Positions 9,379 through 31,842 are shown, counted from the stretch's first letter. The stretch: DNA of 32,000 nucleotides from Akkermansia muciniphila ATCC BAA-835 (GCF_000020225.1 NC_010655.1:870001-902000); one strand, 5' to 3'. Notes: generated by a model from the letters alone, not told the origin. Translations and numbers: made by a program.

Positions 9379-10446
9379 TTACGCTTCCTGCCGTTTGGCA
9401 CGGCGTTTGCGGACAGCGGCGGCAAGGGTTTCCAGCACTTCCACTGTCGTCTCCCACCCAATGCACTGGTCCGTGATGCTCTTGCCGTACACCAGGTCGG
9501 AACTCAACGGCTGGGCCCCTTCCACAATGTTGCTTTCAATCATCACGGCAACAACCTGTTCGGACCCGCTGGATATCTGTTCCGCGATATTGGCGGCCAC
9601 AGCCGGCTGTTTGCGATAATCCTTGCAACTGTTTCCGTGGGAACAGTCTATCATGATGCGGTTGTTGATGCCGGCCTTCTGCAAGGCTTCTTCCGCTTCT
9701 TTTACATGATCTTCATCAAAGTTCGGCCCCAGGGAGGAACCGCGCAGGATCAGGTGGCAGGATTTATTGCCCGTAGTGGAAACAATGGCGGAAACTCCCT
9801 GCTTGGTCACGGAAAGGAAGCAGTGCGGACAGGAGGAGGAAACAATGGCGTCTACAGCGATTTGCAGGCTGCCGCTGGTGCCATTCTTGAATCCCACAGG
9901 CATGGAAAGCCCGGAAGCCAGTTCACGGTGTACCTGGCTTTCCGTGGTGCGCGCGCCGATGGCGCCCCACGTGATCAGGTCCGCAATGTACTGCGGCGTG
10001 ATGGTGTCCAGGAACTCGGTAGCTGCGGGCACTCCCATATCCCCCAGGCGCAGCAGCAGCCCGCGGGCCATATGGAGGCCGCGGTTGATGTCAAAGGTAT
10101 GGTTCATGAACGGGTCGTTGATGAGGCCCTTCCAGCCAACGGTGGTGCGGGGCTTTTCAAAATACACGCGCATGATGATCACCAGATCCTTTTCAAAGCG
10201 CGCCATTTGTTCCTTCAGGCGGGAGGCATAGTCCACGGCAGCCTGGGGATCATGGATGGAGCATGGCCCCACCACCACCAGCAGGCGGTCGTCGTGGCCG
10301 GAAATGATGTTCTCCGCATTCTTGCGGGTCGTAGCCACCATTTTGGCGATTTCGGTGGTTGCCGGATAATCCTTGATTAAAATGGCGGGGGAAATCAGGG
10401 GCTCAATGTCTTGAATGCGTATGTCGTCTGTTTTGAACCAGTTCAT
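9379..10446 (-). CDS. aroG: 3-deoxy-7-phosphoheptulonate (DAHP) synthase, class I
   Basis: 355 aa, collinear with E. coli AroG as recalled (DDRLLVVxGPCSIHDP, MRVYFEKPRTTVGWKGLINDP, WGAIGARTTESQVHRELASGLS, KSITDxCIGWE). The isoenzyme type (F, G or H) cannot be assigned. Confidence 0.95.
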   Translation of the reverse strand: MNWFKTDDIRIQDIEPLISPAILIKDYPATTEIAKMVATTRKNAENIISGHDDRLLVVVGPCSIHDPQAAVDYASRLKEQMARFEKDLVIIMRVYFEKPRTTVGWKGLINDPFMNHTFDINRGLHMARGLLLRLGDMGVPAATEFLDTITPQYIADLITWGAIGARTTESQVHRELASGLSMPVGFKNGTSGSLQIAVDAIVSSSCPHCFLSVTKQGVSAIVSTTGNKSCHLILRGSSLGPNFDEDHVKEAEEALQKAGINNRIMIDCSHGNSCKDYRKQPAVAANIAEQISSGSEQVVAVMIESNIVEGAQPLSSDLVYGKSITDQCIGWETTVEVLETLAAAVRKRRAKRQEA

Positions 10447-16435: not shown

Positions 16436-17422
16436 TCAAAGGAGCCGGTTATCAAACCCTTCCTTCAGCCTTAAAATCTTTCTGGCCGTCATCCGGTAAA
16501 CAGGCCGGTAAAGGTGCTTTTTCAAGACGGCCGGGAGCGTTCTTCCGGGCAGCGGACCGCGCAGCAGCCCGGCTTCACGCATAACCCGTTCGTAACGTTC
16601 CCCTTCATAACGCCAATTATACCGCCAGGGCTTGTGCACCCCCTGGTAATGAAGAATGCCCGGTTCCAAAGCCGCTTCCACCGCCTGGCGCGGCGTGACG
16701 CCGCGCCAGAACTGTTCCCGGGGATCGTTTTTCAAAATGCGGCGCGTCAAACCGTCATGCCAGTTCCAGCGCGGGTGCAGCGGCACAGTCAGCTCGCACA
16801 GGGCTCCGTTCAAGGCATCCTGGTCCGGACATGTCAGCCTGTCCCGGTGAGTGACGGCATAATCCAGCACAGCCCTGACCAGATTCTTCTCCCGGAAGAC
16901 ATCCACATTCATCAGCAGCACGCCGGAATTGAAATATCCCGTGCAGGTCAGCGGCATCTCAAGACGTTCGTTAAAATGGGAACCGGGTCTGGAAAAATTC
17001 TCAAACACCACCCCTATTGCTTTTCCGTCCATATTCGTCCGGAACAGCTCCGTCAAATCCCGGCAAACCAGAACGTCAATGTCCAGATACAGAATATTGC
17101 CCCGCTCTTCCTTCAATAATTCCGGAATGAACACGCGTCCCCAGGCTGGCACCGGCCATTGTTCCGTATGGGGGAAGTCGTGCTTTTCCAAAATGCCGGA
17201 AACGTCTATGAACTCCAGACGGCAATCGAACGGAGCGGCCAGCCGCTCCACGCTCGCCCAGTTCTCTCCGTCAATGCCGTCGGAAAGAACGTAAATTTTG
17301 TAAAAAGTCTCCGGACCGGCAGTATTCAGCAAAGAAAAGACAGTAACGCTCAAAGGTAGAATGCCCCTGTTGTCACTGGCCAGGACGACGGCAAATTCAT
17401 TCTTTTTCATCGGATTATTCAT
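16436..17422 (-). CDS. glycosyltransferase family 8 (RfaI/RfaJ-like LPS hexosyltransferase)
   Basis: 328 aa. YLDIDVLV (DxD), YFNSGVLLMN, CPDQDALN and HYQGVHKPW are GT8 hallmarks. Confidence 0.88.
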   Translation of the reverse strand: MNNPMKKNEFAVVLASDNRGILPLSVTVFSLLNTAGPETFYKIYVLSDGIDGENWASVERLAAPFDCRLEFIDVSGILEKHDFPHTEQWPVPAWGRVFIPELLKEERGNILYLDIDVLVCRDLTELFRTNMDGKAIGVVFENFSRPGSHFNERLEMPLTCTGYFNSGVLLMNVDVFREKNLVRAVLDYAVTHRDRLTCPDQDALNGALCELTVPLHPRWNWHDGLTRRILKNDPREQFWRGVTPRQAVEAALEPGILHYQGVHKPWRYNWRYEGERYERVMREAGLLRGPLPGRTLPAVLKKHLYRPVYRMTARKILRLKEGFDNRLL

Positions 17423-17432
17423 TCGGGTGATG

Positions 17433-18458: not shown

Positions 18459-19429
18459 GAGCCATGCGGAGAATCTGCCGCCCTTATTTGTTCAAATCCT
18501 TCCTGCGGCGGCAGAAAGGGCTCCAGCGCGGACCATACCTGGTCCACTGTAATTTCCTCAATGGCGCCGGGGGAAACCAGGTTGGAAATGCACCGGGCAG
18601 TAATGGCGGAATTGCGCGTCCGGTGGCAGAAAATGGCGGTCACGGGCACCCCGGCATAGGCACACATATGTGTAGGCCCCGTATCATTGCCTACACAAGC
18701 CAGGGAACACAAAGCCATCTGGGGAATATCCATCAGGGAAGACTTGCCCAGAAAACTGACAGCCAGGGGAGAGCTGGCGGCAATGGCCTCCACTTCCGCA
18801 GCCTCCGCCCGGGTGCCGATGACAACGGAGGACACGCCCCGCGCCGCCAGGCGTTTCGCCAGGGCGCAGAAATTCTCCACGGGCCAGCGCTTGTAGGGAT
18901 GATTGGGGGAACAGCCCGGAATCATCATCACATAGCGTTCCGGAAGCTCGTCAAAATGCAGCCCCTCCCCGTGCATGAAAGAAAGATCCGTCAGGACGCG
19001 TTCCAAACGAAACGGCTCCCGTCCCACCTTCCCCCACCGGAAGGCTTTCTTTTTCAGCAATTTGCGCCGTTCTCCGGAATTGCAGGCCACCCAGTCCATG
19101 TCATGGTTCAGCAGGAAGCGCACGGCGGGATAATAGCGTTTCCTGGTGCGGGAAGATTCCTGAAGATCGTACACCACGTCAAAATTTCCTTTCACAATGG
19201 AACGGACGGCCCTCCAGGTGGCGCCCAGCTTCCAGTAAGGCAGGCGATTATCCACAATAAAATCGTCAAACACTCCGAGCTGCTCCGCCATGGGAACAAA
19301 CATTCCCATGGTCATCAGGGTGATATGCGCCTCCGGATGAAGTTCGCGGAGCCGCTTCATCGTCCCCATGGCGAGCACCACATCGCCAAGGGCTCCATGC
19401 TTGATGATCAGAATGCGCTGTGCGGGCAT
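18455..19429 (-). CDS. glycosyltransferase family 9 (ADP-heptose:LPS heptosyltransferase-like)
   Basis: 324 aa. RILIIKHGALGDVV at the N-terminus, PGCSPNHPYKRWP, and GNDTGPTHM. Its stop overlaps the GT2 start (ATGA at 18455-18458). Confidence 0.85.
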   Translation of the reverse strand: MPAQRILIIKHGALGDVVLAMGTMKRLRELHPEAHITLMTMGMFVPMAEQLGVFDDFIVDNRLPYWKLGATWRAVRSIVKGNFDVVYDLQESSRTRKRYYPAVRFLLNHDMDWVACNSGERRKLLKKKAFRWGKVGREPFRLERVLTDLSFMHGEGLHFDELPERYVMMIPGCSPNHPYKRWPVENFCALAKRLAARGVSSVVIGTRAEAAEVEAIAASSPLAVSFLGKSSLMDIPQMALCSLACVGNDTGPTHMCAYAGVPVTAIFCHRTRNSAITARCISNLVSPGAIEEITVDQVWSALEPFLPPQEGFEQIRAADSPHGS

Positions 19430-19450
19430 GGGAGAAAAAAGGAATGCGGG

Positions 19451-20437
19451 TTAAACGTAACTGTCTTCCCTGTCCAGATACTCCTGCACGTACCGGCGCA
19501 CGCCATCCTCCAGGGAAGTCATGGGCGCTGCATAACCGGCAACGCGCAGCCTGGAAAGGTCCGCCTGCGTATAATACTGATATTTCCCCCTGAGCTCTTC
19601 AGGCATCTCCCGGTAGGCAATCTTTTCCTGAAGGCCCAGCGCATGGAATGCCGCCTTCGCCAGATCGTGGAAAGAGCGTGCCTTCCCGGAACCTACGTTG
19701 AACAGGCCGCTCACCTCCGGATGCTCCAGCAGCCAAAGCACCACGTCCACGCAGTCGCCCACCCACACGAAATCCCGGAGCTGCCATCCGTCACGGTAGT
19801 CGGGATGGTAAGATTTGAACAGCTTCACCGTTTCATTGGCCTTCACTTGGGGGAATATATGGGCCACCACGCTTTTCTGCCCGCCCTTATGGTATTCATT
19901 AGGGCCGTACACGTTGAAAAATTTAAGCCCGGCGTATTGGGGGGGAACCGGACGCCCTTCTTTCACTTCCCGGGCCACCTTGCGGTCAAACAGGGCCTTG
20001 CTCCAGCCGTATGCGTTCAGGGGGCGCAGCGCATTGACGTGCTCCAGGGAGGCGTCATCGTCAAACCCCATGGAACCGTCCCCGTACGTGGCTGCGGAGG
20101 AGGCGTAAATAAACCGTTTGCCGTACAGGGAACAAAACTCCCACAAATGCCAGCTCAACGTGAAATTCGTCCGGATAATCAAATCGGCGTCCGTCTCCGT
20201 GGTGGCGGAAATGGCCCCCATGTGAATGACCGCCTCCACCTCATCCGCATGCGCCTTCATATAATCAAACATGCCTTCCGGAGAAACCACGGCGCACAGC
20301 TCTCTCTTGGCAATGTTCCTCCACTTGTCGGAAGAGCCCAGCTCGTCCACCACCACAAGATCCTTTTTACCGGCTTTTTCCAGAGCGGCGACAATGTTTG
20401 AGCCGATAAACCCGGCCCCACCCGTGACAATAATCAT
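19451..20437 (-). CDS. hldD: ADP-L-glycero-D-manno-heptose 6-epimerase
   Basis: MIIVTGGAGFIGSNIV..., ASSAATYG, FNVYGP.E.HKG and RDFVxVGD are collinear with E. coli HldD/RfaD as recalled. The start was taken at ATG 20435-20437; the track ORF adds 31 non-homologous residues. Confidence 0.9.
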   Translation of the reverse strand: MIIVTGGAGFIGSNIVAALEKAGKKDLVVVDELGSSDKWRNIAKRELCAVVSPEGMFDYMKAHADEVEAVIHMGAISATTETDADLIIRTNFTLSWHLWEFCSLYGKRFIYASSAATYGDGSMGFDDDASLEHVNALRPLNAYGWSKALFDRKVAREVKEGRPVPPQYAGLKFFNVYGPNEYHKGGQKSVVAHIFPQVKANETVKLFKSYHPDYRDGWQLRDFVWVGDCVDVVLWLLEHPEVSGLFNVGSGKARSFHDLAKAAFHALGLQEKIAYREMPEELRGKYQYYTQADLSRLRVAGYAAPMTSLEDGVRRYVQEYLDREDSYV

Positions 20438-20537
20438 AAGAAAAGAATCAATAAAAAAGTTGTACGGCCTTTTATACCACATCCACCCGTCCCTAGGCAA
20501 CTGCCATTTGAGGCGTTCCCCGGCTCCCAATTTTCAA

Positions 20538-20552
20538 CGAATTTACAATCCG
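20538..20552. repeat. palindrome copy S1: CGAATT-TAC-AATCCG
   Basis: Read directly. 11 of 12 arm positions match the CGGATT/AATCCG consensus. With its flanks it is a 16/17 inverted repeat of S2, including the core (TAC versus GTA). Confidence 0.9.
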
Positions 20553-20697
20553 GACACTCCAAACCCTGACCGTTCCATGCGGAAAACCATTGGGCCGCAA
20601 TCCCCGCGCAGCTTGCGGAGGGTGCGCCCCTCAAATCCTCTTTTCATACTGGCAACGTTAAAAAATTTCGGTAAGACCTGTCTTGCAAAAATTATCA

Positions 20698-20726
20698 TTG
20701 ACCACGGATTGTAAATCCGTTACACA
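20698..20726 (+). promoter_or_regulatory. putative sigma70-type promoter of the plus glycan arm, with palindrome S2 in the spacer
   Basis: TTGACC (20698-20703), a 17-nt spacer, then TACACA (20721-20726), 13 nt before the GT2 ATG. The CATTGAC ... TACAC pattern matches the two GT10 promoters. Motif inference only. Confidence 0.35.
20705..20719. repeat. palindrome copy S2: CGGATT-GTA-AATCCG (perfect arms)
   Basis: Read directly. It lies between the -35-like and -10-like boxes, 20 nt upstream of the GT2 start. Confidence 0.9.
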
Positions 20727-20739
20727 CATTCCCACCCCT

Positions 20740-21894
20740 ATGATCCCCGATGTTTCCATCATTGTTCCCTGCTACAATGTAGCCGCTTACGTGGACAGCT
20801 GCCTGGAGAGCCTGGTACGCCAGACTCTCCGGAACATAGAAATTATCTGCATCAATGACGGCTCCACGGATGAGACCTGGACACATCTGCTGCGCTGGAA
20901 AGAAAAGGACAGCAGAATCATCCTTCTGAACCAGCGGAACGCGGGCGTCTCCGCAGCAAGGAATGCAGGGCTGGATGCCGCCCGCGGCCTTTATGTCGGT
21001 TTTGCGGATCCGGACGACTACATGGATCCGGAAATGTATTCCCGCCTTTTTTCGGCGGCTCTGGAATATGACGCAGACATCGTGGAATGCGGCAACCATG
21101 TTTTTGAAGACTCGTCAGACCGGATTATCGAAGCCAAAAGAAGATCACCCTCCCGGCATTTTGAAGAGAACGCCTCTCCGGCCAGCTTCTTCCGGGATTC
21201 CATCTGGGGGAAAATGGATATCTGCGTGTGGAGCAAACTGTTCCGGAAAAGCATGCTGGACGCCCACCGCCTCCGCTTCAACGTACATCTGAAATCCGGC
21301 GCGGAGGATGAAACCTTCCGGCTGATGGCCGTTCCCCATGCCTCCCGTCTCCTGTTCATTCCCGACTGCCTGTATTACTACCGCCTTATGCGCAACGGCT
21401 CCCTCTCCCGCCGCTGCAACGTTCCCACCTACTCCAAATGCGTGCAGGAATTCCAGCGGCTGCTGTACATTGTGGACTACTGGCAGAAACAAGGATGGCA
21501 GAATGAAGGCCTGTTCGCTTACGGCGTCCGGAAAATCAGGCCTTTTTTTGTTTCCAAGCATCCCCTTTTCCATCAGATGACCGCTGTCCAGCAACGTTCC
21601 GCGCTGGACTGGTGGAGCCTGTTCTATCAGAAGGCGGAAGGAAAACGTTTCCTCTCCGCTCTATCGGGACGGGACAGGCAACTGGCGGACCTGTTGAACT
21701 CGGCGGAACCGGTCCCCAACGGCTGGGGGCGCATTCTGCTGGCAGCCTGCTCCCTGCTTCCCGGACAAAAAGGACGTTATTACTCCTGCAAAAAAATGCT
21801 TGCGGAACATTTTTCCCAAATCTGCCCCAATGAGTTTCAAAAAGAAAACGCTTCTCTGGAAGAGCCGTTTGACACATCGCCGCCTTCCCTGTAA
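20740..21894 (+). CDS. glycosyltransferase family 2 with C-terminal extension
   Basis: MIPDVSIIVPCYNVAAYVDSCLESLVRQT, ICINDGSTDET and FADPDD are present. The track start at 20683 is a TTG; ATG at 20740 gives the canonical GT2 N-terminus. Confidence 0.85.
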   Translation: MIPDVSIIVPCYNVAAYVDSCLESLVRQTLRNIEIICINDGSTDETWTHLLRWKEKDSRIILLNQRNAGVSAARNAGLDAARGLYVGFADPDDYMDPEMYSRLFSAALEYDADIVECGNHVFEDSSDRIIEAKRRSPSRHFEENASPASFFRDSIWGKMDICVWSKLFRKSMLDAHRLRFNVHLKSGAEDETFRLMAVPHASRLLFIPDCLYYYRLMRNGSLSRRCNVPTYSKCVQEFQRLLYIVDYWQKQGWQNEGLFAYGVRKIRPFFVSKHPLFHQMTAVQQRSALDWWSLFYQKAEGKRFLSALSGRDRQLADLLNSAEPVPNGWGRILLAACSLLPGQKGRYYSCKKMLAEHFSQICPNEFQKENASLEEPFDTSPPSL

Positions 21895-21921
21895 ATTGCC
21901 TTATCCTCCCATTCCGGATCA

Positions 21922-22728
21922 ATGAACCGTTTTCTCTCATTTGCAGACTCCCGCATGTCGGCCGCCCTGGAGCGGCTGGGCAGGCAGGCGGAAGCGCTGG
22001 ATTTTTTTGATGAGATCACGCTCTTCACGGAACACGACCTTTCCGCAGAATTCACCAGCCGCATGGGCCGCTACCTGACGCCGTCCTGCCGGGGATTCGG
22101 ATACTGGTCCTGGAAACCCTGGGCCATCCACCATGTCCTCCAAGAAATGGAAGAAGGAGACCGCCTCCTTTATCTGGATGCAGGCTGCCATATCAACGCC
22201 AACGGAACGGAGCGCTTCCGGGAATACGTAAATATGCTGGACCGCGACAGCCGCGGCATGCTGGTTTTCACCAACGGACAGCCGGAATACAAATGGACCA
22301 AAGGAGATATCTTCCGCCACTTCGGCATTTCCCAAGAAGACGGGCATATCACGCATACCCAGCAAATTGCGGGCGGCCATGTTTTCCTGAAAAAAAACCC
22401 GCTCACGGAAAGCCTGATCCGGGATTGGCTCCATGTCTTTTACGACCATCTGCATCTTGCGGACAACACTCCTTCCGCCTCCCCCAACCTGCCGGGTTTT
22501 GTGGAAAACCGGTATGACCAGAGCATCTTTTCCATCCTATGCAAACTGAGGGGCATCACCACCCTCGACGGATCGGAAACCTATGCGGAAAACTGGGAAC
22601 AGCTCTCCTTGTTTCCATTCCAGGACAGACGGGACATGGGAATCCCACGGGCCGGGAAAAAGGGATGGCTGGAAAAATGCAGGCAGCTCCTTCTTTCTTC
22701 CAAAAGAAACGGATTAGGAATCCGGTAA
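21922..22728 (+). CDS. uncharacterised protein embedded in the glycan locus (possible novel glycosyltransferase-like enzyme)
   Basis: 268 aa in the coding frame with host-like composition, 27 nt after the GT2 stop. Motifs GYWSWKPW, LLYLDAGC and ENRYDQSIFS are seen, but I cannot place them in a named family. Confidence 0.65.
   Translation: MNRFLSFADSRMSAALERLGRQAEALDFFDEITLFTEHDLSAEFTSRMGRYLTPSCRGFGYWSWKPWAIHHVLQEMEEGDRLLYLDAGCHINANGTERFREYVNMLDRDSRGMLVFTNGQPEYKWTKGDIFRHFGISQEDGHITHTQQIAGGHVFLKKNPLTESLIRDWLHVFYDHLHLADNTPSASPNLPGFVENRYDQSIFSILCKLRGITTLDGSETYAENWEQLSLFPFQDRRDMGIPRAGKKGWLEKCRQLLLSSKRNGLGIR
22710..22724. repeat. palindrome copy S3: CGGATT-AGG-AATCCG (perfect arms)
   Basis: Read directly. 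It overlaps the last codons of ORF 21922-22728 (stop at 22726-22728). It is a 14/15 inverted repeat of S4, including the core (AGG versus CCT). Confidence 0.9.
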
Positions 22729-23145
22729 AGCTTCCCCACTCGGAACAACCGGGCTGCACGACGTTTCCGGACGGGGCAATCTGACGCACCATGAACTGTT
22801 TTCCCGTCCTTTTCCACAGCTTCAGCCCGAAAATTCCTTTACCCTTCGGCTGCCGTTTCCGGAATGTAATGACGGTTATTTGGACAAGCTCTTTTCATTT
22901 GATCAGGAATGTTTTGCCTTCATGAAAGCAAACATCCCTCCATTCCAAAACTCCGCACCCGCACTATCCTCCGCCGACATTCTCCCACCCCTACTCACAG
23001 TTATGCCGTCACCGGAATCCGGCTTTCCCCCATTCATACCGGAATGAAAATAAAAAGGCCATCATGCTGGGAACAGCCTGCCGCAGTTCATGGAATACTG
23101 GCAGCCTAGATTTCCCCAAAACGTTTTTCTTTCAGATTTGTAGGC

Positions 23146-23175
23146 TTGACGGCGGATTCCTAATCCTCATACTTT
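23146..23175 (+). promoter_or_regulatory. putative promoter of the GT4 gene, with palindrome S4 in the spacer
   Basis: TTGACG (23146-23151), an 18-nt spacer, then TACTTT (23170-23175). This is the same layout as at S2. Motif inference only. Confidence 0.3.
23153..23167. repeat. palindrome copy S4: CGGATT-CCT-AATCCT
   Basis: Read directly. 11 of 12 arm positions match. It ends 13 nt upstream of the in-frame GTG at 23181. Confidence 0.9.
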
Positions 23176-23180
23176 CCTAT

Positions 23181-24455
23181 GTGGCTTCTCCTCAATGCCG
23201 AACAATATTTCAAGTCTCCCATAGCGTCTCGGCCAGCTCCGCCCCTTACCGGTTGAGCGACGCTCTGAACCGGCATATTCCCGGCCTAAAATCCACCCTG
23301 CTGCTCCGGAGGCGCAAAGAAATTGACGGCCTGGAAATCCACAGGACACCCGCCAGAAGGGCTACGGACGCCTTGCGCCGCCATCTGGCCCATGGATTTG
23401 ACATTCTGCTGCCGGAAAGAAGAAAAGACCTGCCTTTCTCCCTGAATGTGCTGGGCATGGGATTTGACACGGCCCAAATGGAAAAAGCCGATGTAGTGCA
23501 TCTGCACTGGATAGGCGGCAGAACCGTGGATTTCTCGCAGCTGTGCCATATCCGCCGTCCATTGGTCTATACCCTGCACGACATGTTTGCCTGCACCGCG
23601 GGATGCCACTGCACCATGGACTGCGGCCTGTTCCAGGACGAATGCCGCGGCAACTGCCCCCAGCTTGGCGCTCCCCGCCTCTTCCGCAACATTCCAGCGT
23701 GGCTGTTTTCCCGCAAACGCCGCGCCTTCGGCCGCATCCCGTCCCTTACCCTCGTAACTCCCTCCCTCTGGTTAAAAAGGGAAGTGGAAAGAAGCTGCAT
23801 GTTCCCTGGAAGAAAAATCGTACAGATTTACAATCCTGTGGACACGGACCTTTTCCGTCCGGCGGAAGACCGGAATGCCATCCGGGCCGGCCTGGGCATC
23901 CCGCCCGGAGCGTTCGTCATCGCCTGCGGCGCAACCGGCCTGTTCAATCCGGTCAAAGGCGGCCATTTCATCCCCCTGGTGCTGGAGGAACTATACCGGC
24001 GCGGGCACCGGAACCTTCATCTCCTGCTCTTCGGCAACCAGGAAAAAAGCGTGGACTACCCCTTCCCCAGCACAAACGCCGGATTCATTACGGACATGAA
24101 CAAGCTGGCCGGGCTTTACAGCGCGGCGGACATTTTCCTGAACCCCACGCTTCAGGATGTCCTTTCCAACGTAGCGCTGGAATCCATGGCCTGCAAAACC
24201 CCTTCCGTTACCTTCCGGACGGGAGGAGTTCCGGAAGCGGTTCTGGACGGAAGGACGGGGCTGGTCGCTCAGCAGGGGGACCTGAACCAAATGGTCGCCC
24301 ACTGCGAACGGCTCATCCAGGACGGAAAACTCCTGCAAACCCTGGCGGAGGAAGGCCGTCGGCACGCGGAACAAACATTCTCCTACCCCGTCATTGCCGC
24401 ACGGCACGCCGCCCTGTATGAGGAAACGTTCCGGGAATACCGTTACGAAGAGTGA
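23181..24455 (+). CDS. glycosyltransferase family 4 (GT-B, GT1 clan)
   Basis: IFQVSHS...APYRL at the N-terminus, VVHLHWIGG ... LVYTLHDMFACTAGCHCTMDC ... CPQLG, and a C-terminal E-x7-E-like region (NVALESMACKTPSV). The residues between the ATG at 23064 and 23181 look non-protein-like. The GTG at 23181 places the start 8 residues before the conserved IFQVSHS. The start is uncertain. Confidence 0.85.
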   Translation: MASPQCRTIFQVSHSVSASSAPYRLSDALNRHIPGLKSTLLLRRRKEIDGLEIHRTPARRATDALRRHLAHGFDILLPERRKDLPFSLNVLGMGFDTAQMEKADVVHLHWIGGRTVDFSQLCHIRRPLVYTLHDMFACTAGCHCTMDCGLFQDECRGNCPQLGAPRLFRNIPAWLFSRKRRAFGRIPSLTLVTPSLWLKREVERSCMFPGRKIVQIYNPVDTDLFRPAEDRNAIRAGLGIPPGAFVIACGATGLFNPVKGGHFIPLVLEELYRRGHRNLHLLLFGNQEKSVDYPFPSTNAGFITDMNKLAGLYSAADIFLNPTLQDVLSNVALESMACKTPSVTFRTGGVPEAVLDGRTGLVAQQGDLNQMVAHCERLIQDGKLLQTLAEEGRRHAEQTFSYPVIAARHAALYEETFREYRYEE

Positions 24456-24520
24456 AAACGGCCGGCGTTCAACCGCCGGACTGCCTGTTCCAGCACATCC
24501 GGGCGCATTTTCCTTTGTCA

Positions 24521-24548
24521 TTGACAAGAAAAAGACGCCTCATACACT
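24521..24548 (+). promoter_or_regulatory. putative promoter of the FutA-like GT10 gene
   Basis: TTGACA (24521-24526), a 16-nt spacer, then TACACT (24543-24548), 27 nt before the ATG. It is embedded in an 18-nt block that is 17/18 identical to the block at 27757-27774. The -35 box is part of the palindrome TTGTCA-T-TGACAA (24515-24527). Confidence 0.45.
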
Positions 24549-24575
24549 CTGCACCGTTTCAACCCTTCTCTCCCC

Positions 24576-25574
24576 ATGAAAACGCTTAAAATCTCCTTTT
24601 TACAGTCCACTCCGGATTTCGGCAGGGAAGGAATGCTTCAGCTTCTGAAAAGCCGGTATCATGTGGTGGAAGACGATTCCGATTTTGATTACCTGGTCGC
24701 CACCCCCTGGTTTTACGTCAACCGGGAGGCTTTTTACGATTTTCTGGAACGGGCCCCCGGCCATATCACCGTCATGTACGGCTGTCATGAAGCCATTGCA
24801 CCGGATTTCATGCTGTTTGACTATTACATCGGGCTCGATACGGTGCCCGGAAGCGACCGTACTGTCAAACTTCCCTACCTTCGCCACCATTTGGAAGAAG
24901 TGCACGGCGGTAAGGAAGGCCTGGATGCCCATGCTCTCCTGGCCTCCAAAACGGGTTTCTGCAACTTCATTTACGCCAACCGCAAATCCCATCCCAACAG
25001 GGATGCCATGTTCCACAAACTCTCCGCTTTCCGGTTCGTCAATTCTCTGGGGCCCCATCTTAACAACACCCCGGGCGACGGCCACCGGGCGGAAGACTGG
25101 TACGCATCCTCCATCAGAATGAAAAAGCCGTATAAATTCTCCATTGCCTTTGAAAATGCATGGTACCCCGGCTACACCAGTGAAAAAATCGTCACCAGCA
25201 TGCTTGCAGGCACCATTCCCATTTACTGGGGAAATCCGGACATCAGCCGGGAATTCAATTCCGCCTCATTCATCAACTGCCACGACTTCCCAACCCTGGA
25301 CGACGCCGCGGCCTATGTGAAAAAAGTGGACGAAGACGACAACCTGTGGTGTGAAATCATGTCGCGCCCCTGGAAAACCCCGGAACAGGAAGCCCGCTTT
25401 CTGGAAGAGACGGAAAGGGAAACGGCCAAGCTTTACAAAATATTCGACCAATCTCCGGAAGAAGCGCGCCGCAAAGGTGACGGAACATGGGTATCCTACT
25501 ACCAGCGCTTTTTAAAACGCGGCCACAGGATGCAGCTGGCATGGCGGCGGCTGAAAAACCGCCTGCGCCGCTAA
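24576..25574 (+). CDS. alpha-(1,3)-fucosyltransferase, glycosyltransferase family 10 (H. pylori FutA-like)
   Basis: 332 aa. LFDYYIGLD, YKFSIAFENAWYPGYTSEKIVTSMLAGTIPIYWGNPDISREFNSASFINCHDF aligns with H. pylori FutA YKFNLCFENSQGYGYVTEKILDAYFSHTIPIYWGSPSVAKDFNPKSFVNVHDF as recalled. It lacks the H. pylori heptad tail and any poly-C tract. Confidence 0.92.
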   Translation: MKTLKISFLQSTPDFGREGMLQLLKSRYHVVEDDSDFDYLVATPWFYVNREAFYDFLERAPGHITVMYGCHEAIAPDFMLFDYYIGLDTVPGSDRTVKLPYLRHHLEEVHGGKEGLDAHALLASKTGFCNFIYANRKSHPNRDAMFHKLSAFRFVNSLGPHLNNTPGDGHRAEDWYASSIRMKKPYKFSIAFENAWYPGYTSEKIVTSMLAGTIPIYWGNPDISREFNSASFINCHDFPTLDDAAAYVKKVDEDDNLWCEIMSRPWKTPEQEARFLEETERETAKLYKIFDQSPEEARRKGDGTWVSYYQRFLKRGHRMQLAWRRLKNRLRR

Positions 25575-25655
25575 CCAACGTTTCCGGGCAATTCAACCCC
25601 ATGCCGGATTTCCTCTGCCCGCCTTCCCCCGTCCCCATCCACTTCCTTCCGCTTC

Positions 25656-27728
25656 ATGAGCAAATTCTTTTCTGAAACCTTTTGTTCACCTTCTCCCCAC
25701 CAAGCCGGAGGCGCCATCCACGGAACCTATTTCCCGCACATTGACGGCCTGCGTACTTTTGCCGTGCTGGCCGTCGTCCTGTACCATTTGCAGGAAGGGA
25801 TCTGCCCTGGAGGCTATGCAGGCGTGGACATCTTCTTTGTCATCTCCGGATATCTGATTGGCGGAGGCCTCATCCGTAGCCTGAAGGAGGGAACGTTCTC
25901 CCTGACCTCCTTTTACCTCCGGAGAATCAGGCGCATCATGCCCGCCTACTTCTGCCTGATTGCGGCCGTGCTGGCTTTCGGCTGCGTCGTTCTGGACTGC
26001 GATGACCTGCGGACTCTGGGCCGGACGGTGAGATCCAGCGCCCTTTTCATCACCAACACGTACTTCAGCAGAACCACAGGGGATTACTTCAGCCCGGCGG
26101 CGGAAGAAAACCCTTTGCTGAACCTGTGGTCCCTGAGCGTGGAAGAACAATTTTACCTGATGATTCCGCTTACCCTGTGGCTGCTCTGGAAATTCAGGGA
26201 AAAAGCCGTCAAACCCGTTCTATGGGGGGCGCTGGGCCTCTCCTTCTTCGCCGCCGCCTTCCACATGGGGCATCTGGAACATAACAAGGCCTTCTATCTG
26301 CTTTACTGCCGCGCCTGGGAACTTCTGGCCGGCTGCCTTCTGGCTCTGGCTCCCGCCGCAGAACAGAACCGGGGAACCGGATGGCTGCGGACGGCGGGAT
26401 GGGCCGGAATCCTGCTCCCCTTTGCCTGTTATACCTCTTCCACTCCTTTTCCCGGATACACGGCCATCCCTTCCATCGCGGGGGCGGCCCTGCTTATCCG
26501 TTACGGAAACCATGGCTGGTCCGGGCGTATCCTCAGGCACCCGCTCAGCACGGGCATCGGCAAAATCTCCTACTCCCTCTATTTGTGGCATTGGCCAGTT
26601 ATCGTGTACTGGACATACGTCTGTTTCGATGAATGCTCTCCCTGGGATTATGCGGGCATGTTCCTTCTCTCCCTTCTTCTGGGTTTCCTTTCCTGGAAAT
26701 TCGTGGAAACCCCCTTCAGAACGACCGTCTCATGGCAAACTCCCGGAAAAGCGTTTCTGGCCACGGCAGCAGGGTGCCTCATGCTGGGATTTGCCGGTGA
26801 ATGGCTCAAATGGACGGACGGCGCGCGGGATTACTGGCATGTAGCGGCCAACAGCATGGAATTCCCTGAATACTGGAAAGGGCCGGCCTTCCCGCCCTCC
26901 TTCGGCATCACGCCTCCCAGCCGGGCGGTGGTGGAAAAGGGCAACGCCATTCAGCACCATCATCCGGAGCTGGGGGATGTGACGGATTACCCTTTTGTCC
27001 TGCTGGGAAAAAACGGGCAGGCCCCTTCCTTCCTGCTTATGGGGGACAGCCATGCCATGGCCAGTTCCCCCGGATTTGACGAGGCCGCGCGGCTTCTTCA
27101 GCGCTCGGGCCTGTTCTACCGCGCGCGCCTGTGTCCGCTGAGCGGCATCTCCGGCTCCGGAGACTCCTCTTCCCTGACGCTCCTGCGCCTGATGTACCCC
27201 CATTGGGAACACAATATGGAACTAATTCTGGACTGGCTGGAAAATACCCCCCAGGTAAAGACCGTATTCATCCACAACCGCTGGATTGAACTGGTGAACA
27301 ATCACCGGGATACGCGCCTGAAACAACTGGTTGCAGACGGCCTGCGCCACACCTGTGCGCGTCTTCGGAAAGCCGGCAAGCAAATCGTGCTGCTGGGTCC
27401 CGTTCCCGAATGGACTTTCGGCCCGCGCAAGCTCATGCGGCGCAATGCCCTGCTGAACGCCAACCGGACAGACCGCCTGCTGGGCGGGGACTTCAACACG
27501 CGGCAGCGTCCGGTATTCGCCCTGTTGGAGCACATGGAATCCACAGGCCTGTGCCGCTTCATTCCCCTCCACGGCACCTTCCATAAAAATGGGCGGTGGC
27601 TGGCGGAAGACAGCGGCCAATTAATGTACTGCGACGACAATCACCTTTCCCCCTACGGGTCCAGAAAAATGGTCGGCGACATCATCGACCAGCTTTTCCC
27701 GGGAATGGAAAGAACAGCAGCCAACTGA
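25656..27728 (+). CDS. acyltransferase family 3 (OafA-like) fused to a C-terminal SGNH domain; glycan O-acetyltransferase
   Basis: 690 aa. FPHIDGLRTFAVLAVVLYH and FFVISGYL, then about 10 TM segments. The C-terminal domain has LLMGDSHA and CDDNHLS (SGNH blocks I and V). Confidence 0.9.
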   Translation: MSKFFSETFCSPSPHQAGGAIHGTYFPHIDGLRTFAVLAVVLYHLQEGICPGGYAGVDIFFVISGYLIGGGLIRSLKEGTFSLTSFYLRRIRRIMPAYFCLIAAVLAFGCVVLDCDDLRTLGRTVRSSALFITNTYFSRTTGDYFSPAAEENPLLNLWSLSVEEQFYLMIPLTLWLLWKFREKAVKPVLWGALGLSFFAAAFHMGHLEHNKAFYLLYCRAWELLAGCLLALAPAAEQNRGTGWLRTAGWAGILLPFACYTSSTPFPGYTAIPSIAGAALLIRYGNHGWSGRILRHPLSTGIGKISYSLYLWHWPVIVYWTYVCFDECSPWDYAGMFLLSLLLGFLSWKFVETPFRTTVSWQTPGKAFLATAAGCLMLGFAGEWLKWTDGARDYWHVAANSMEFPEYWKGPAFPPSFGITPPSRAVVEKGNAIQHHHPELGDVTDYPFVLLGKNGQAPSFLLMGDSHAMASSPGFDEAARLLQRSGLFYRARLCPLSGISGSGDSSSLTLLRLMYPHWEHNMELILDWLENTPQVKTVFIHNRWIELVNNHRDTRLKQLVADGLRHTCARLRKAGKQIVLLGPVPEWTFGPRKLMRRNALLNANRTDRLLGGDFNTRQRPVFALLEHMESTGLCRFIPLHGTFHKNGRWLAEDSGQLMYCDDNHLSPYGSRKMVGDIIDQLFPGMERTAAN

Positions 27729-27766
27729 CGGAAGCTCCGCACGGAAAAACATCCAATCCTTTGACA

Positions 27767-27794
27767 TTGACAAGGCATGCAGGCCCCCTACACT
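27767..27794 (+). promoter_or_regulatory. putative promoter of the second GT10-like gene
   Basis: TTGACA (27767-27772), a 16-nt spacer, then TACACT (27789-27794). The spacing and -10 box are the same as at 24521-24548. It is preceded by a second TTGACA in tandem (27761-27766). The leader is about 90 nt. Confidence 0.45.
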
Positions 27795-27887
27795 GGCGCC
27801 AGGCAGTAAAGCCTTCGCGATGGTCCCGGATAAAAGCCCGGAATATGAAGGCCATACCGCGTCCCCCTATTCAACGCCTGTACTCCC

Positions 27888-28919
27888 ATGACGGATTCCT
27901 CCCGCCCCACACGCATCAAGGTCATCAGAAAATCCATGAAGGCCTCTCCGGATCAAACGGAATCCCTGTTGTGGGGCGACTGCCTGTTCTGCACGGACGC
28001 CGCCATGACGGATTACGACTGGGTTCTGGTATACGACGAATTTCCCAGAACTCCCGTGGGCACCATCAGGAATGAAACGGAACCCCTTCTCTGTCCTCCG
28101 GACCAGACTATCCTGATTACGGTGGAGCCCCCCTCCATCAAAATCTACAGCAGGGCATACACCAGCCAATTCGGCACCGTTCTCACCACCCACTCCATCC
28201 GGGACCTTCCGCACCCCGGGCACACCTTGGGCCGCGGATGTCTTGAATGGCTGTACATCAAGCCCATGCAGGAAATTCTGGACCAGAAGGAATTCCCGAA
28301 GACAAAAATGCTCTCCACCATCTGCTCCGCCAAGCAGCATACGCATACCATGCATAAAAAGCGCTATGATCTTACGCGTTACCTGGCGGACCGTCTGCCG
28401 GAACTGGACTGGTTCGGACACGGCATCCGGGAAATAGAAAATAAAACCGTCGCCATGGATGACTACAAATATCATCTATGCGTGGAAAACCATCTGGAAC
28501 CCCACCATTGGACGGAAAAACTGTCTGATGCCTTTGTTGCCATGACCCTTCCCTTTTACGCCGGGGATCCGTTGGCAACGGAATGCTTCCCGCAGGAAAG
28601 CTTCATCCCCATCCCGCTGGACAACCCGCAAAAAGCCCTTGAAATCATCCGCAAGGCCATGGAGGACGGAGAATATGAAAAACGGCTCCCCGCCATCCGT
28701 GAGGCAAGGCGCCTGGTGCTGGAAAAATACAACATGTTCGCTCAAACAGCGGCAGTCATTCACAACCACAGGGAAACGGGAACCATACGCCCCGGAGCCA
28801 TGCTGAAAGGACGCCACGTTCTGCGGAAAAATCCGCTCCATGCCCTTCGGGAATTGACGGACACGCTGGCCTATAAAATCAGGTCGCGCGGCAGGCGCGG
28901 AACCGGAACCGGAGCATAA
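27888..28919 (+). CDS. glycosyltransferase family 10-like protein (divergent fucosyltransferase)
   Basis: 343 aa. YKYHLCVENHLEPHHWTEKLSDAFVAMTLPFYAGDP fits the GT10 core motif (ENxxxxxY/WxTEK ... IP.YxG). The rest of the protein is divergent from the upstream FutA-like protein. Confidence 0.72.
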   Translation: MTDSSRPTRIKVIRKSMKASPDQTESLLWGDCLFCTDAAMTDYDWVLVYDEFPRTPVGTIRNETEPLLCPPDQTILITVEPPSIKIYSRAYTSQFGTVLTTHSIRDLPHPGHTLGRGCLEWLYIKPMQEILDQKEFPKTKMLSTICSAKQHTHTMHKKRYDLTRYLADRLPELDWFGHGIREIENKTVAMDDYKYHLCVENHLEPHHWTEKLSDAFVAMTLPFYAGDPLATECFPQESFIPIPLDNPQKALEIIRKAMEDGEYEKRLPAIREARRLVLEKYNMFAQTAAVIHNHRETGTIRPGAMLKGRHVLRKNPLHALRELTDTLAYKIRSRGRRGTGTGA

Positions 28920-31756: not shown

Positions 31757-31842
31757 TGGTGGGTAGAGAAGGATTCGAACCTTCGAAAGCAAATGCTAAC
31801 AGATTTACAGTCTGCCCCCTTTGACCGCTCGGGAATCTACCC
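31757..31842 (-). tRNA. tRNA-Tyr (anticodon GTA), class II with long variable arm, CCA encoded
   Basis: The reverse complement reads GGGTAGATTCCCGAGCGGTCAAAGGGGGCAGACTGTAAATCTGTTAGCATTTGCTTTCGAAGGTTCGAATCCTTCTCTACCCACCA. It has a 7-bp acceptor stem, anticodon loop CTGTAAA, T-arm GAAGGTTCGAATCCTTC, and close similarity to E. coli tRNA-Tyr as recalled. Confidence 0.93.

Follow-up and report, generated by a model that had tools for sequence, protein, structure and literature searches.

We read the paired palindromes of a predicted surface-glycan locus of Akkermansia muciniphila strain ATCC BAA-835 as two neighbouring inversion switches (invertons) of the kind already published for Akkermansia, and we put the probability of this reading, together with the mechanism proposed below, at about 0.88. 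The locus lies in a 32,000-nucleotide (nt) stretch of the chromosome (NC_010655.1:870001-902000), which is referred to here, in its full length, as the window. Each switch is a short segment enclosed by two copies of a 15-base-pair (bp) site that face in opposite directions. The sites, the inversions between them, the interval in which the strands are exchanged and the covariation of the central nucleotides of partner sites were all observed directly in the sequences compared.

Recombination sites and their inverted copies

A total of four matches to the motif CGGATTNNNAATCCG with at most one mismatch were found in the window (20538, 20705, 22710 and 23153), against a mean expectation of 0.16 matches; none of 100 dinucleotide-preserving shuffles reached four. 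All of them fall into two inverted pairs matching CGGATT..AATCCG. The first pair bounds inverton 1, an invertible segment of 152 bp (20553..20704) whose TTGACC end faces the glycosyltransferase gene GT2 in the window. Site S1 (20538-20552, CGAATTTACAATCCG; arms and core CGAATT-TAC-AATCCG) lies within the left inverted repeat (20536..20552), which is conserved in 53 related loci, whereas S2 (20705-20719, CGGATTGTAAATCCG; CGGATT-GTA-AATCCG) lies within the right inverted repeat (20705..20721). These two 17-nt repeats pair at 16 of 17 positions (94% complementary), with their arms 152 nt apart. The second pair consists of S3 (22710-22724, CGGATT-AGG-AATCCG) and S4 (23153-23167, CGGATT-CCT-AATCCT), the left and right repeats of inverton 2, an invertible segment of 428 bp (22725..23152); S4 is located 13 nt before the likely GTG start of a second glycosyltransferase gene, GT4. 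Here the inverted repeat is perfect over 14 nt (22711-22724 and 23153-23166, around 428 nt) and the cores AGG and CCT are reverse-complementary. A fifth site, S5 (23823-23837, CAGATTTACAATCCT; CAGATT-TAC-AATCCT), has two mismatches to the motif, shares its TAC core with S1 and is positioned inside the GT4 coding sequence (codons QIYNP). The dyad axis of the 15-mer runs through the middle base of the 3-nt core, which gives the site an odd symmetry. Conservation ends at 6 bp per arm, and the flanks beyond the 15-mer vary among S1-S5 and among lineages. A first-pass annotation of the window had reported S1 and S2 with these coordinates and sequences as a 16/17 inverted repeat, and had noted that the arms recur at 22710 and 23153; our searches reproduce both statements and add that S3 and S4 are themselves a pair.

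Another stretch with two mismatches to the motif (17411-17425, CGGATTATTCATTCG) was found at the start codon of a GT8 gene and is conserved in close strains. It was considered as a further switch site and rejected, as no partner with an AAT core occurs among the sequences compared; we treat it as a chance match.

A protein search with GT2 identified orthologous loci in four Akkermansia species (L001-L004, 82-95% protein identity) as well as about 57 Akkermansia contigs from gut metagenomes, many of them 97-99% identical to the window; the host is Akkermansia. The window segments were compared by blastn with every related locus (about 60 orthologous loci), and orientation was scored by which repeat the TTGAC end of a segment abuts, which was possible for 53 pairs of inverton 1 and 49 pairs of inverton 2. 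Inverton 1 faces GT2 in 49 of its 53 pairs and faces hldD, the gene on its other side, in the remaining four. It is exactly inverted in L083 (Ga0137310_100233) and L084 (OUUV01000003.1), where the whole interior is reversed at 99% identity between unchanged flanks, and L099 and L114 likewise have it facing hldD. The TTGAC end of inverton 2 faces GT4 in 45 of 49 pairs and points away from it in four. Inversion of the 428-bp segment, again with unchanged flanks, was seen in L089, L090 and L102, while L004 and L110 carry homologous counterparts of 153 nt in opposite orientations; their shared end (...ccgtttgt[ag]ttgactt) adjoins S3 in L004 and S4 in L110.

In other Akkermansia species inverton 2 is replaced by unrelated interiors of about 153 nt, of which three different types were found (L001; L110 and L004; L120). 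The window ceases to be homologous to L001 and L004 precisely at S3, and between species homology ends exactly at S3 and S4. The flipped copies occur in lineages that are 84-99% identical to the window, and several independent events are therefore needed to account for them. Repeats of 14-17 nt are shorter than the k-mers used by assemblers, so that mis-joining at the repeats is unlikely. These copies (inverton 1 in L083 and L084, inverton 2 in L089, L090 and L102, the counterpart in L004), taken with the hybrid sites and the core covariation described below, support the first-pass annotation, which had read the paired sites as substrates of site-specific inversion and had suggested that flipped copies be sought in related genomes.

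Inversion of the second segment also alters a protein. The open reading frame ORF268 (21922..22728, plus strand; 268 amino acids, no family match) overlaps S3 with its last six codons and stop codon, and in L090, L102 and L089 the flip replaces the stop-codon context and extends the protein by 28 residues (...GLGIRRQAYKSERKTFWGN...). Inverton 2 is thus partly intragenic. On the minus strand the sequence of S3 gives a 6-bp hairpin with TTTCTTTTGG after it, and its score is that of a terminator-like element; this hairpin could stop antisense transcription into ORF268 once inverton 2 is flipped.

One reversed stretch of a different kind was found in L132 (4015-4395), in which window positions 25426-25804 appear on the opposite strand at the end of the contig with 94% identity. 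No inverted repeats were found at window 25426-25804, and the arrangement may be an assembly chimera or another rearrangement.

Crossover interval, core covariation and the predicted recombinase

The site S2 has recombined with two different partners, with S1 in L083 and L084 and with S5 in L099 and L114. The last two represent separate strains, with identities to the window of about 97% (L099) and 99% (L114), and both carry a 3.1-kb inversion between S2 and S5. The order in L114 is the reverse complement of window 27802..23822, then 20699..23845, then 20541..20721 and then the reverse complement of 20552..18651; L099 shows the same order with a first block of 27001..23822, its contig ending sooner. 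The junction maps to window 23823-23837, and a 3.1-kb inversion by S2 x S5, combined with a flip by S1 x S2, accounts for the arrangement in both strains. The S2 x S5 event truncates GT4, leaving 219 native residues and 53 foreign ones in place of 424. S5 is present only in the lineage that codes its asparagine as AAT, as the AAC of other lineages breaks the arm, and we read it as a cryptic rather than a designed site.

The recombined strains contain the hybrid sites AGGATT.GTA.AATCCG, CAGATT.TAC.AATCCG and CGGATT.GTA.AATTCG, in all of which each flank has kept the three outermost bases of the arm beside it. Strand exchange consequently takes place within ATT-NNN-AAT, at site positions 4-12. 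The cores between the arms vary among lineages, and they do so together. The first pair of sites has TAC/GTA, or TAT/ATA in L109; the second has AGG/CCT, GGG/CCC (L085, L089), TGG/CCA (L004, L097, L098, L131) or TGA/TCA (L110). In total, partner cores are reverse-complementary in 101 of 102 pairs, with six different core pairs represented. Matching centres in the overlap region are required by site-specific recombinases, as is established for lox and FRT spacer variants.

We infer that the recombinase acts from outside the window, in which no resolvase or invertase domain was found. The symmetry of the site suggests its type. Some tyrosine recombinases use an odd overlap, whereas Hin-type serine invertases use a central 2-bp stagger, and a dyad axis through the middle base of a 3-nt core fits the former and not the latter. 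The three variable nucleotides lie within an invariant TT...AA, a possible 7-bp overlap, and our preference is for a tyrosine recombinase whose overlap is odd, for example TTNNNAA. The label 'Lox-like' given to the sites in the first pass is apt for their geometry; membership of that family is not borne out, conservation being only 4-6 bp per arm.

Predicted promoter layout and competing explanations

In the mechanism that we propose, a recombinase encoded outside the window would recognise the 15-bp site CGGATT-NNN-AATCCG and exchange strands inside the central ATT-NNN-AAT, and recombination between two sites would require asymmetric 3-nt cores that are reverse complements of each other. S1 x S2 would then flip 152 bp, S3 x S4 would flip 428 bp and S2 x S5 would flip 3.1 kb, splitting GT4. 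Each small segment would bear an outward TTGAC (-35) box at one end with an A/T-rich or T-rich stretch upstream of it, the recombination site would serve as a 16-17-nt spacer, and a -10-like hexamer would be located immediately ahead of the gene, in the flank that does not move. In the orientation of the window both promoters would be assembled, with GT2-ORF268 on and GT4-GT10-acyltransferase on; a flip would remove the -35 box and turn the respective genes off. A flip of inverton 1 would moreover re-form a promoter, TTGACC-18-GAAAAT, towards hldD. The on/off assignment of both switches (both on in the window) is predicted from this layout.

The elements of the layout are as follows. A -35-like TTGACC (20698..20703, plus strand), with an A/T-rich stretch 5' of it, is found inside inverton 1 at its right end, and a -10-like TACACA (20721..20726, plus strand) lies outside the segment, 13 nt before the GT2 start codon; promoter function is predicted for both. 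S2 sits within the 17-nt gap between the two boxes and 20 nt before the GT2 ATG (20740), which agrees in its coordinates with the description given in the first-pass annotation. Outside S1, on the minus strand, a -10-like GAAAAT (20530..20535) would be joined to TTGACC at a distance of 18 nt, facing hldD, after a flip. At inverton 2 the promoter-like TTGACG-16-CATACT (23146..23173, plus strand) has its -35 box inside the segment, S4 as its spacer and its -10 box outside.

Every lineage has, in each pair, one repeat with a TTGAC box at a distance of 1-2 nt, including lineages whose interiors are otherwise unrelated; a conserved T-rich or A/T-rich stretch precedes the box. In consensus scans, 22600-23300 gave a single promoter-like match, TTGACG-16-CATACT; L120 gave TTGACT-16-CATAAT at the equivalent position across S4, and the flipped inverton 1 of L083 gave TTGACC-18-GAAAAT across S1, directed towards hldD. 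Four of five species have kept the sequence TTACA[CT] following S2. No match was returned by a strict sigma-70 promoter and terminator scan of 20200-21000. A split promoter with the recombination site as its spacer is the most economical reading of this layout, and we give it roughly even odds. The earlier proposal that a flip would uncouple the -35 box from the -10 box has gained the support of conservation and of the consensus scans as regards the arrangement of the boxes; that they function as promoters is a prediction from sequence.

A separate block on the minus strand (window about 20455-20500) is invariant across five Akkermansia species and holds TTGCCT-18-TATAAA preceded by TG, as read by eye. 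It is likely to be a constitutive hldD promoter independent of inverton 1, and since it lies in an invariant block, hldD need not depend on the switch.

A number of observations weigh against the reading of the two segments as switches or against its promoter part. The comparison was one of assemblies, and the two orientations were seen only as differences between them. The distant loci L002, L120, L121 and L135 keep S2 without S1, so that S2 cannot act there as an inverton-1 switch. The S2 palindrome before GT2 is kept in L002 (5966), in L120, L121 and L135 (3965) and in L004 (5965), with the cores GTA, TTA and TCA, and no recognisable S1 partner was found in any of these five loci; the TTGAC box at S2 is kept in the first four and lost in L004. 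The promoter at S2 in these S1-less distant species appears locked. The single pair with non-complementary cores (AGG/CCA) occurs in L130, an assembly in which DNA identity is 97% but protein identity only 61%, a discrepancy that points to sequencing errors. The -10 box of inverton 1, TACACA, is weak (3/6), and TTGACC-17-TACACA was not called by the strict scan because TACACA lacks the T at position 6. An inverton beside a PEP-CTERM protein gene in L157 places its TTGAC in another register and lacks a clear -10 box outside the segment, and the split-promoter design may therefore not be general. Finally, no recombinase domain was found by Pfam in the 30 main open reading frames of the window, as the first-pass annotation had stated of recombinase genes, nor was one found in the 21-kb locus L157.

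Some of these points would suit other explanations. The restriction of the flips to differences between assemblies, at 4/53 for inverton 1 and 4/49 for inverton 2, and the destruction of a gene by the S2 x S5 event are what one would expect of rare accidental rearrangements between short inverted repeats, arising by homologous or illegitimate recombination and fixed in some strains, in place of a programmed switch. However, RecA-type recombination needs far longer repeats than the 14-17 nt present here, flips are found repeatedly in lineages that are unrelated, and the cores covary. The motif also flanks about 30 A. muciniphila invertons with mixed read orientations (PMC11892184), and the cps1 inverton of this organism switches in culture, mice and humans (PMC13343947). 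We consider an accidental origin very unlikely. The persistence of S2 without S1 in four distant loci, together with the near-perfect palindrome that each site forms in a promoter spacer, would agree with operators of a dimeric repressor or activator, S2 and S4 occluding the promoter spacer and S1 and S3 serving as auxiliary looping operators, with no recombination at all. Such looping operators had been offered as the alternative in the first-pass annotation. They predict neither the exact inversions of the bracketed DNA and the hybrid sites nor six core pairs that stay reverse-complementary between partners, and the published role of the motif is that of an inverton repeat (PMC13343947). As the sole explanation the operators are contradicted by the flipped assemblies, and we attach very little probability to them.

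The covariation of the cores could be claimed for RNA as well, since compensatory changes would also keep a long-range stem. In that case S1/S2 and S3/S4 would form long-range stems, or the sites 6-bp hairpins, that affect the processing, termination or translation of the glycan transcripts, and the hairpin and T-run of S3 on the minus strand do look like a terminator. RNA pairing, however, yields neither inverted DNA nor hybrid sites; S1 lies upstream of the predicted promoter and hence not on the S2 transcript, and no Rfam family matches the sites. The chance that the sites act in this way is minimal. We rate as equally slight the possibility that the segments are elements resembling miniature inverted-repeat transposable elements with the palindromes as their terminal inverted repeats. 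The exact breaks of interspecies homology at S3 and S4 and the differing interiors (428 nt against unrelated ones of about 153 nt) would follow from it, but no empty sites, target-site duplications or extra copies of the interiors were found in the sequences compared, the repeats persist with different interiors, and the segments invert in place. Two programmed inversion switches thus remain our preferred explanation.

Gene context, known systems and significance

The neighbours of both switches are surface-glycan genes by their family matches, and the locus is of the glycosyltransferase type associated with lipopolysaccharide (LPS) or lipooligosaccharide (LOS). The minus-strand arm begins with hldD (ADP-glyceromanno-heptose 6-epimerase; 19451..20437), assigned by TIGR02197 (404.7 bits against a cut-off of 274.6) and by Pfam, and continues with a GT9 heptosyltransferase-like gene, a GT2 gene and a GT8 gene, an arrangement that resembles an LPS core cluster. 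The plus-strand arm starts with the GT2 glycosyltransferase gene (20740..21894, ATG start; PF00535, E 1.2e-33), which is the first gene after inverton 1. ORF268 follows it, and then GT4 (23181..24455, plus strand), whose GTG start was inferred from the Pfam domain alignment and the N-terminal sequence. Further along this arm are a GT10 fucosyltransferase-like gene (24576-25574), an AT3-SGNH acyltransferase gene (25656-27728) and a second GT10-like gene (27888-28919). An Rfam scan of the whole window gave no match at S1-S4, its only match being a tRNA gene on the minus strand (31760-31842). Nothing notable was found in the window by way of homopolymer or tandem-repeat phase variation. Deletions were observed in metagenome strains within GT4 (L127, window 23756-24404; L134, 23725-23780), within GT9 (L094, 18821-18892) and across the GT2/GT9 junction (L118, 18170-18329); these are further strain-level variation in the glycan locus.

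The motif CGGATT..AATCCG has already been published for the repeats of Akkermansia invertons (Jiang 2019, cited in PMC13343947 and in PMC11892184). In a 2025 Microbiome study it was re-found as inverton group 138, with 32 members in A. muciniphila ATCC BAA-835 that are enriched near PEP-CTERM protein genes; an example at 2092093-2092109-2092267-2092283 has 17-nt repeats around 157 nt (PMC11892184). Verrucomicrobia, represented only by Akkermansia, were reported to have the most intergenic invertons per genome (PMC10028968), and the cps1 inverton was shown experimentally to switch (PMC13343947). The elements described here share with the published ones the genus, the motif, a similar geometry (152 against 157 nt), adjacent surface-structure genes and the occurrence of both orientations in sequence data. 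Identity of the present locus with the characterised cps1 was considered and rejected: cps1 is amuc_2077-2098 and carries wza and wzx, whereas the window is without wza, wzc and wzx. Unlike the cps1 inverton, those described here belong to a glycosyltransferase cluster linked to hldD and heptosyltransferase genes.

Both invertons are members of the published Akkermansia class, at most additions at the catalogue level, and they may already be listed in genome-wide catalogues. The Akkermansia inverton papers accessible to us, which do not include the inverton tables, contain neither the name of a recombinase nor the hldD-linked locus, nor do they mention core covariation, S5 or a layout with the -35 box inside and the -10 box outside. 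The core covariation, the cryptic S5 with its gene-splitting 3.1-kb inversion, the apparent split promoter and the junctions between loci described below may be new.

Several other inversion systems resemble the present one in part. The invertible capsular-polysaccharide promoters of Bacteroides fragilis, reportedly described by Krinos in 2001 with the invertase Mpi following from Coyne in 2003, are like it in having several invertible segments upstream of surface-glycan operons, combinatorial surface variation and a recombinase that here too is probably encoded elsewhere and acts in trans. The phylum and the repeat are different, the B. fragilis promoter lies wholly inside its segment, and Mpi is a serine recombinase; here, in contrast, the odd-symmetric 15-mer itself seems to serve as the promoter spacer. 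With loxP and FRT the sites share inverted arms, an asymmetric centre that sets orientation, the need for matching centres and inversion as the outcome between inverted sites. They differ in having only 6 conserved bp per arm, or 4 should TTNNNAA be the overlap, where loxP has 13 bp, and a variable centre of 3 nt; recombinase-binding arms of about 11-13 bp, as in sites of the loxP, FRT or dif type, were not found.

The R64 shufflon (Rci/sfx) likewise has more than two sites in both orientations, nested or alternative inversions and, like this locus, an intragenic site. As in that system, more than one partner is used here: S1 and S5, with their TAC cores, are both inverted relative to S2 (GTA), and both products were observed. 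Shufflons, however, swap C-terminal gene segments and have an adjacent recombinase gene, whereas the present sites mainly concern promoters and S2 x S5 truncates GT4. The E. coli fimS element (FimB/FimE) and the Salmonella hin/hix system are comparable as short invertible promoter segments that switch a surface structure on and off, although their promoter is wholly inside the segment and their recombinase genes lie next to it or within it. The hix site has even symmetry and a 2-bp crossover, as opposed to the odd symmetry seen here, and neither an even-symmetric site of about 26 bp nor a recombinase gene in or next to the segment, both typical of Hin, Gin and Cin, is present.

Junctions between distant loci were also encountered. 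In L089 (5909-5923 onward) a hybrid site, CGGATT.CCC.AATTCG, connects the flipped inverton 2 with a gene for a PEP-CTERM protein from outside the window, which suggests recombination between invertons at distant loci. The native PEP-CTERM locus (L157, complete genome CP024742.1) has an inverton of its own at 10021-10223, CGAATT.TGG.AATCCG / CGGATT.CCA.AATCCG, and a third, degenerate site, GGAATT.CCA.AATTCG. Two A. muciniphila loci, L157 (about 10014) and L158 (about 5758), have DNA in common only from 7 nt left of the left repeat of this inverton onward; their upstream gene contexts are wholly different, which indicates a large rearrangement with its breakpoint at the site. In L137 (1159-1173) S3 has a GGG core, and the DNA after it is foreign to the window, containing a partial GT-like open reading frame and a CysJ-like flavoprotein gene, on a contig of low coverage with an adapter-like end. 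The sites therefore also mark breakpoints of large between-strain rearrangements, and these breakpoints fit recombination of sites at different loci with matching cores.

A broader reading would join two ideas. The 15-mer would be a split-promoter spacer, with inverton 1 toggling one -35 box between divergent operons and inversion dismantling the promoter, and the 3-nt core would be an address code by which a single trans-acting recombinase runs many switches, with cross-talk where cores coincide (S2 x S5 and the PEP-CTERM junctions). We hold this combination tentatively, at somewhat less than even odds. If true, it would imply that inversions, small and large, form a core-programmed network across the Akkermansia genome.

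Akkermansia muciniphila is under probiotic development, and its surface glycans shape host signalling. As this kind of element is already published, the value of the present findings lies in the detail and in a testable mechanism and not in a new class. The odd-symmetric 15-mer, the covarying 3-nt core and the ATT-NNN-AAT crossover provide handles for finding the Akkermansia invertase and for building phase-locked strains. If the mechanism is correct, two independent switches and a gene-splitting inversion would enable a single strain to present several forms of LPS/LOS or glycan from this hldD-linked, fucosyltransferase-containing locus, which would bear on strain phenotyping, immune read-outs and product consistency.

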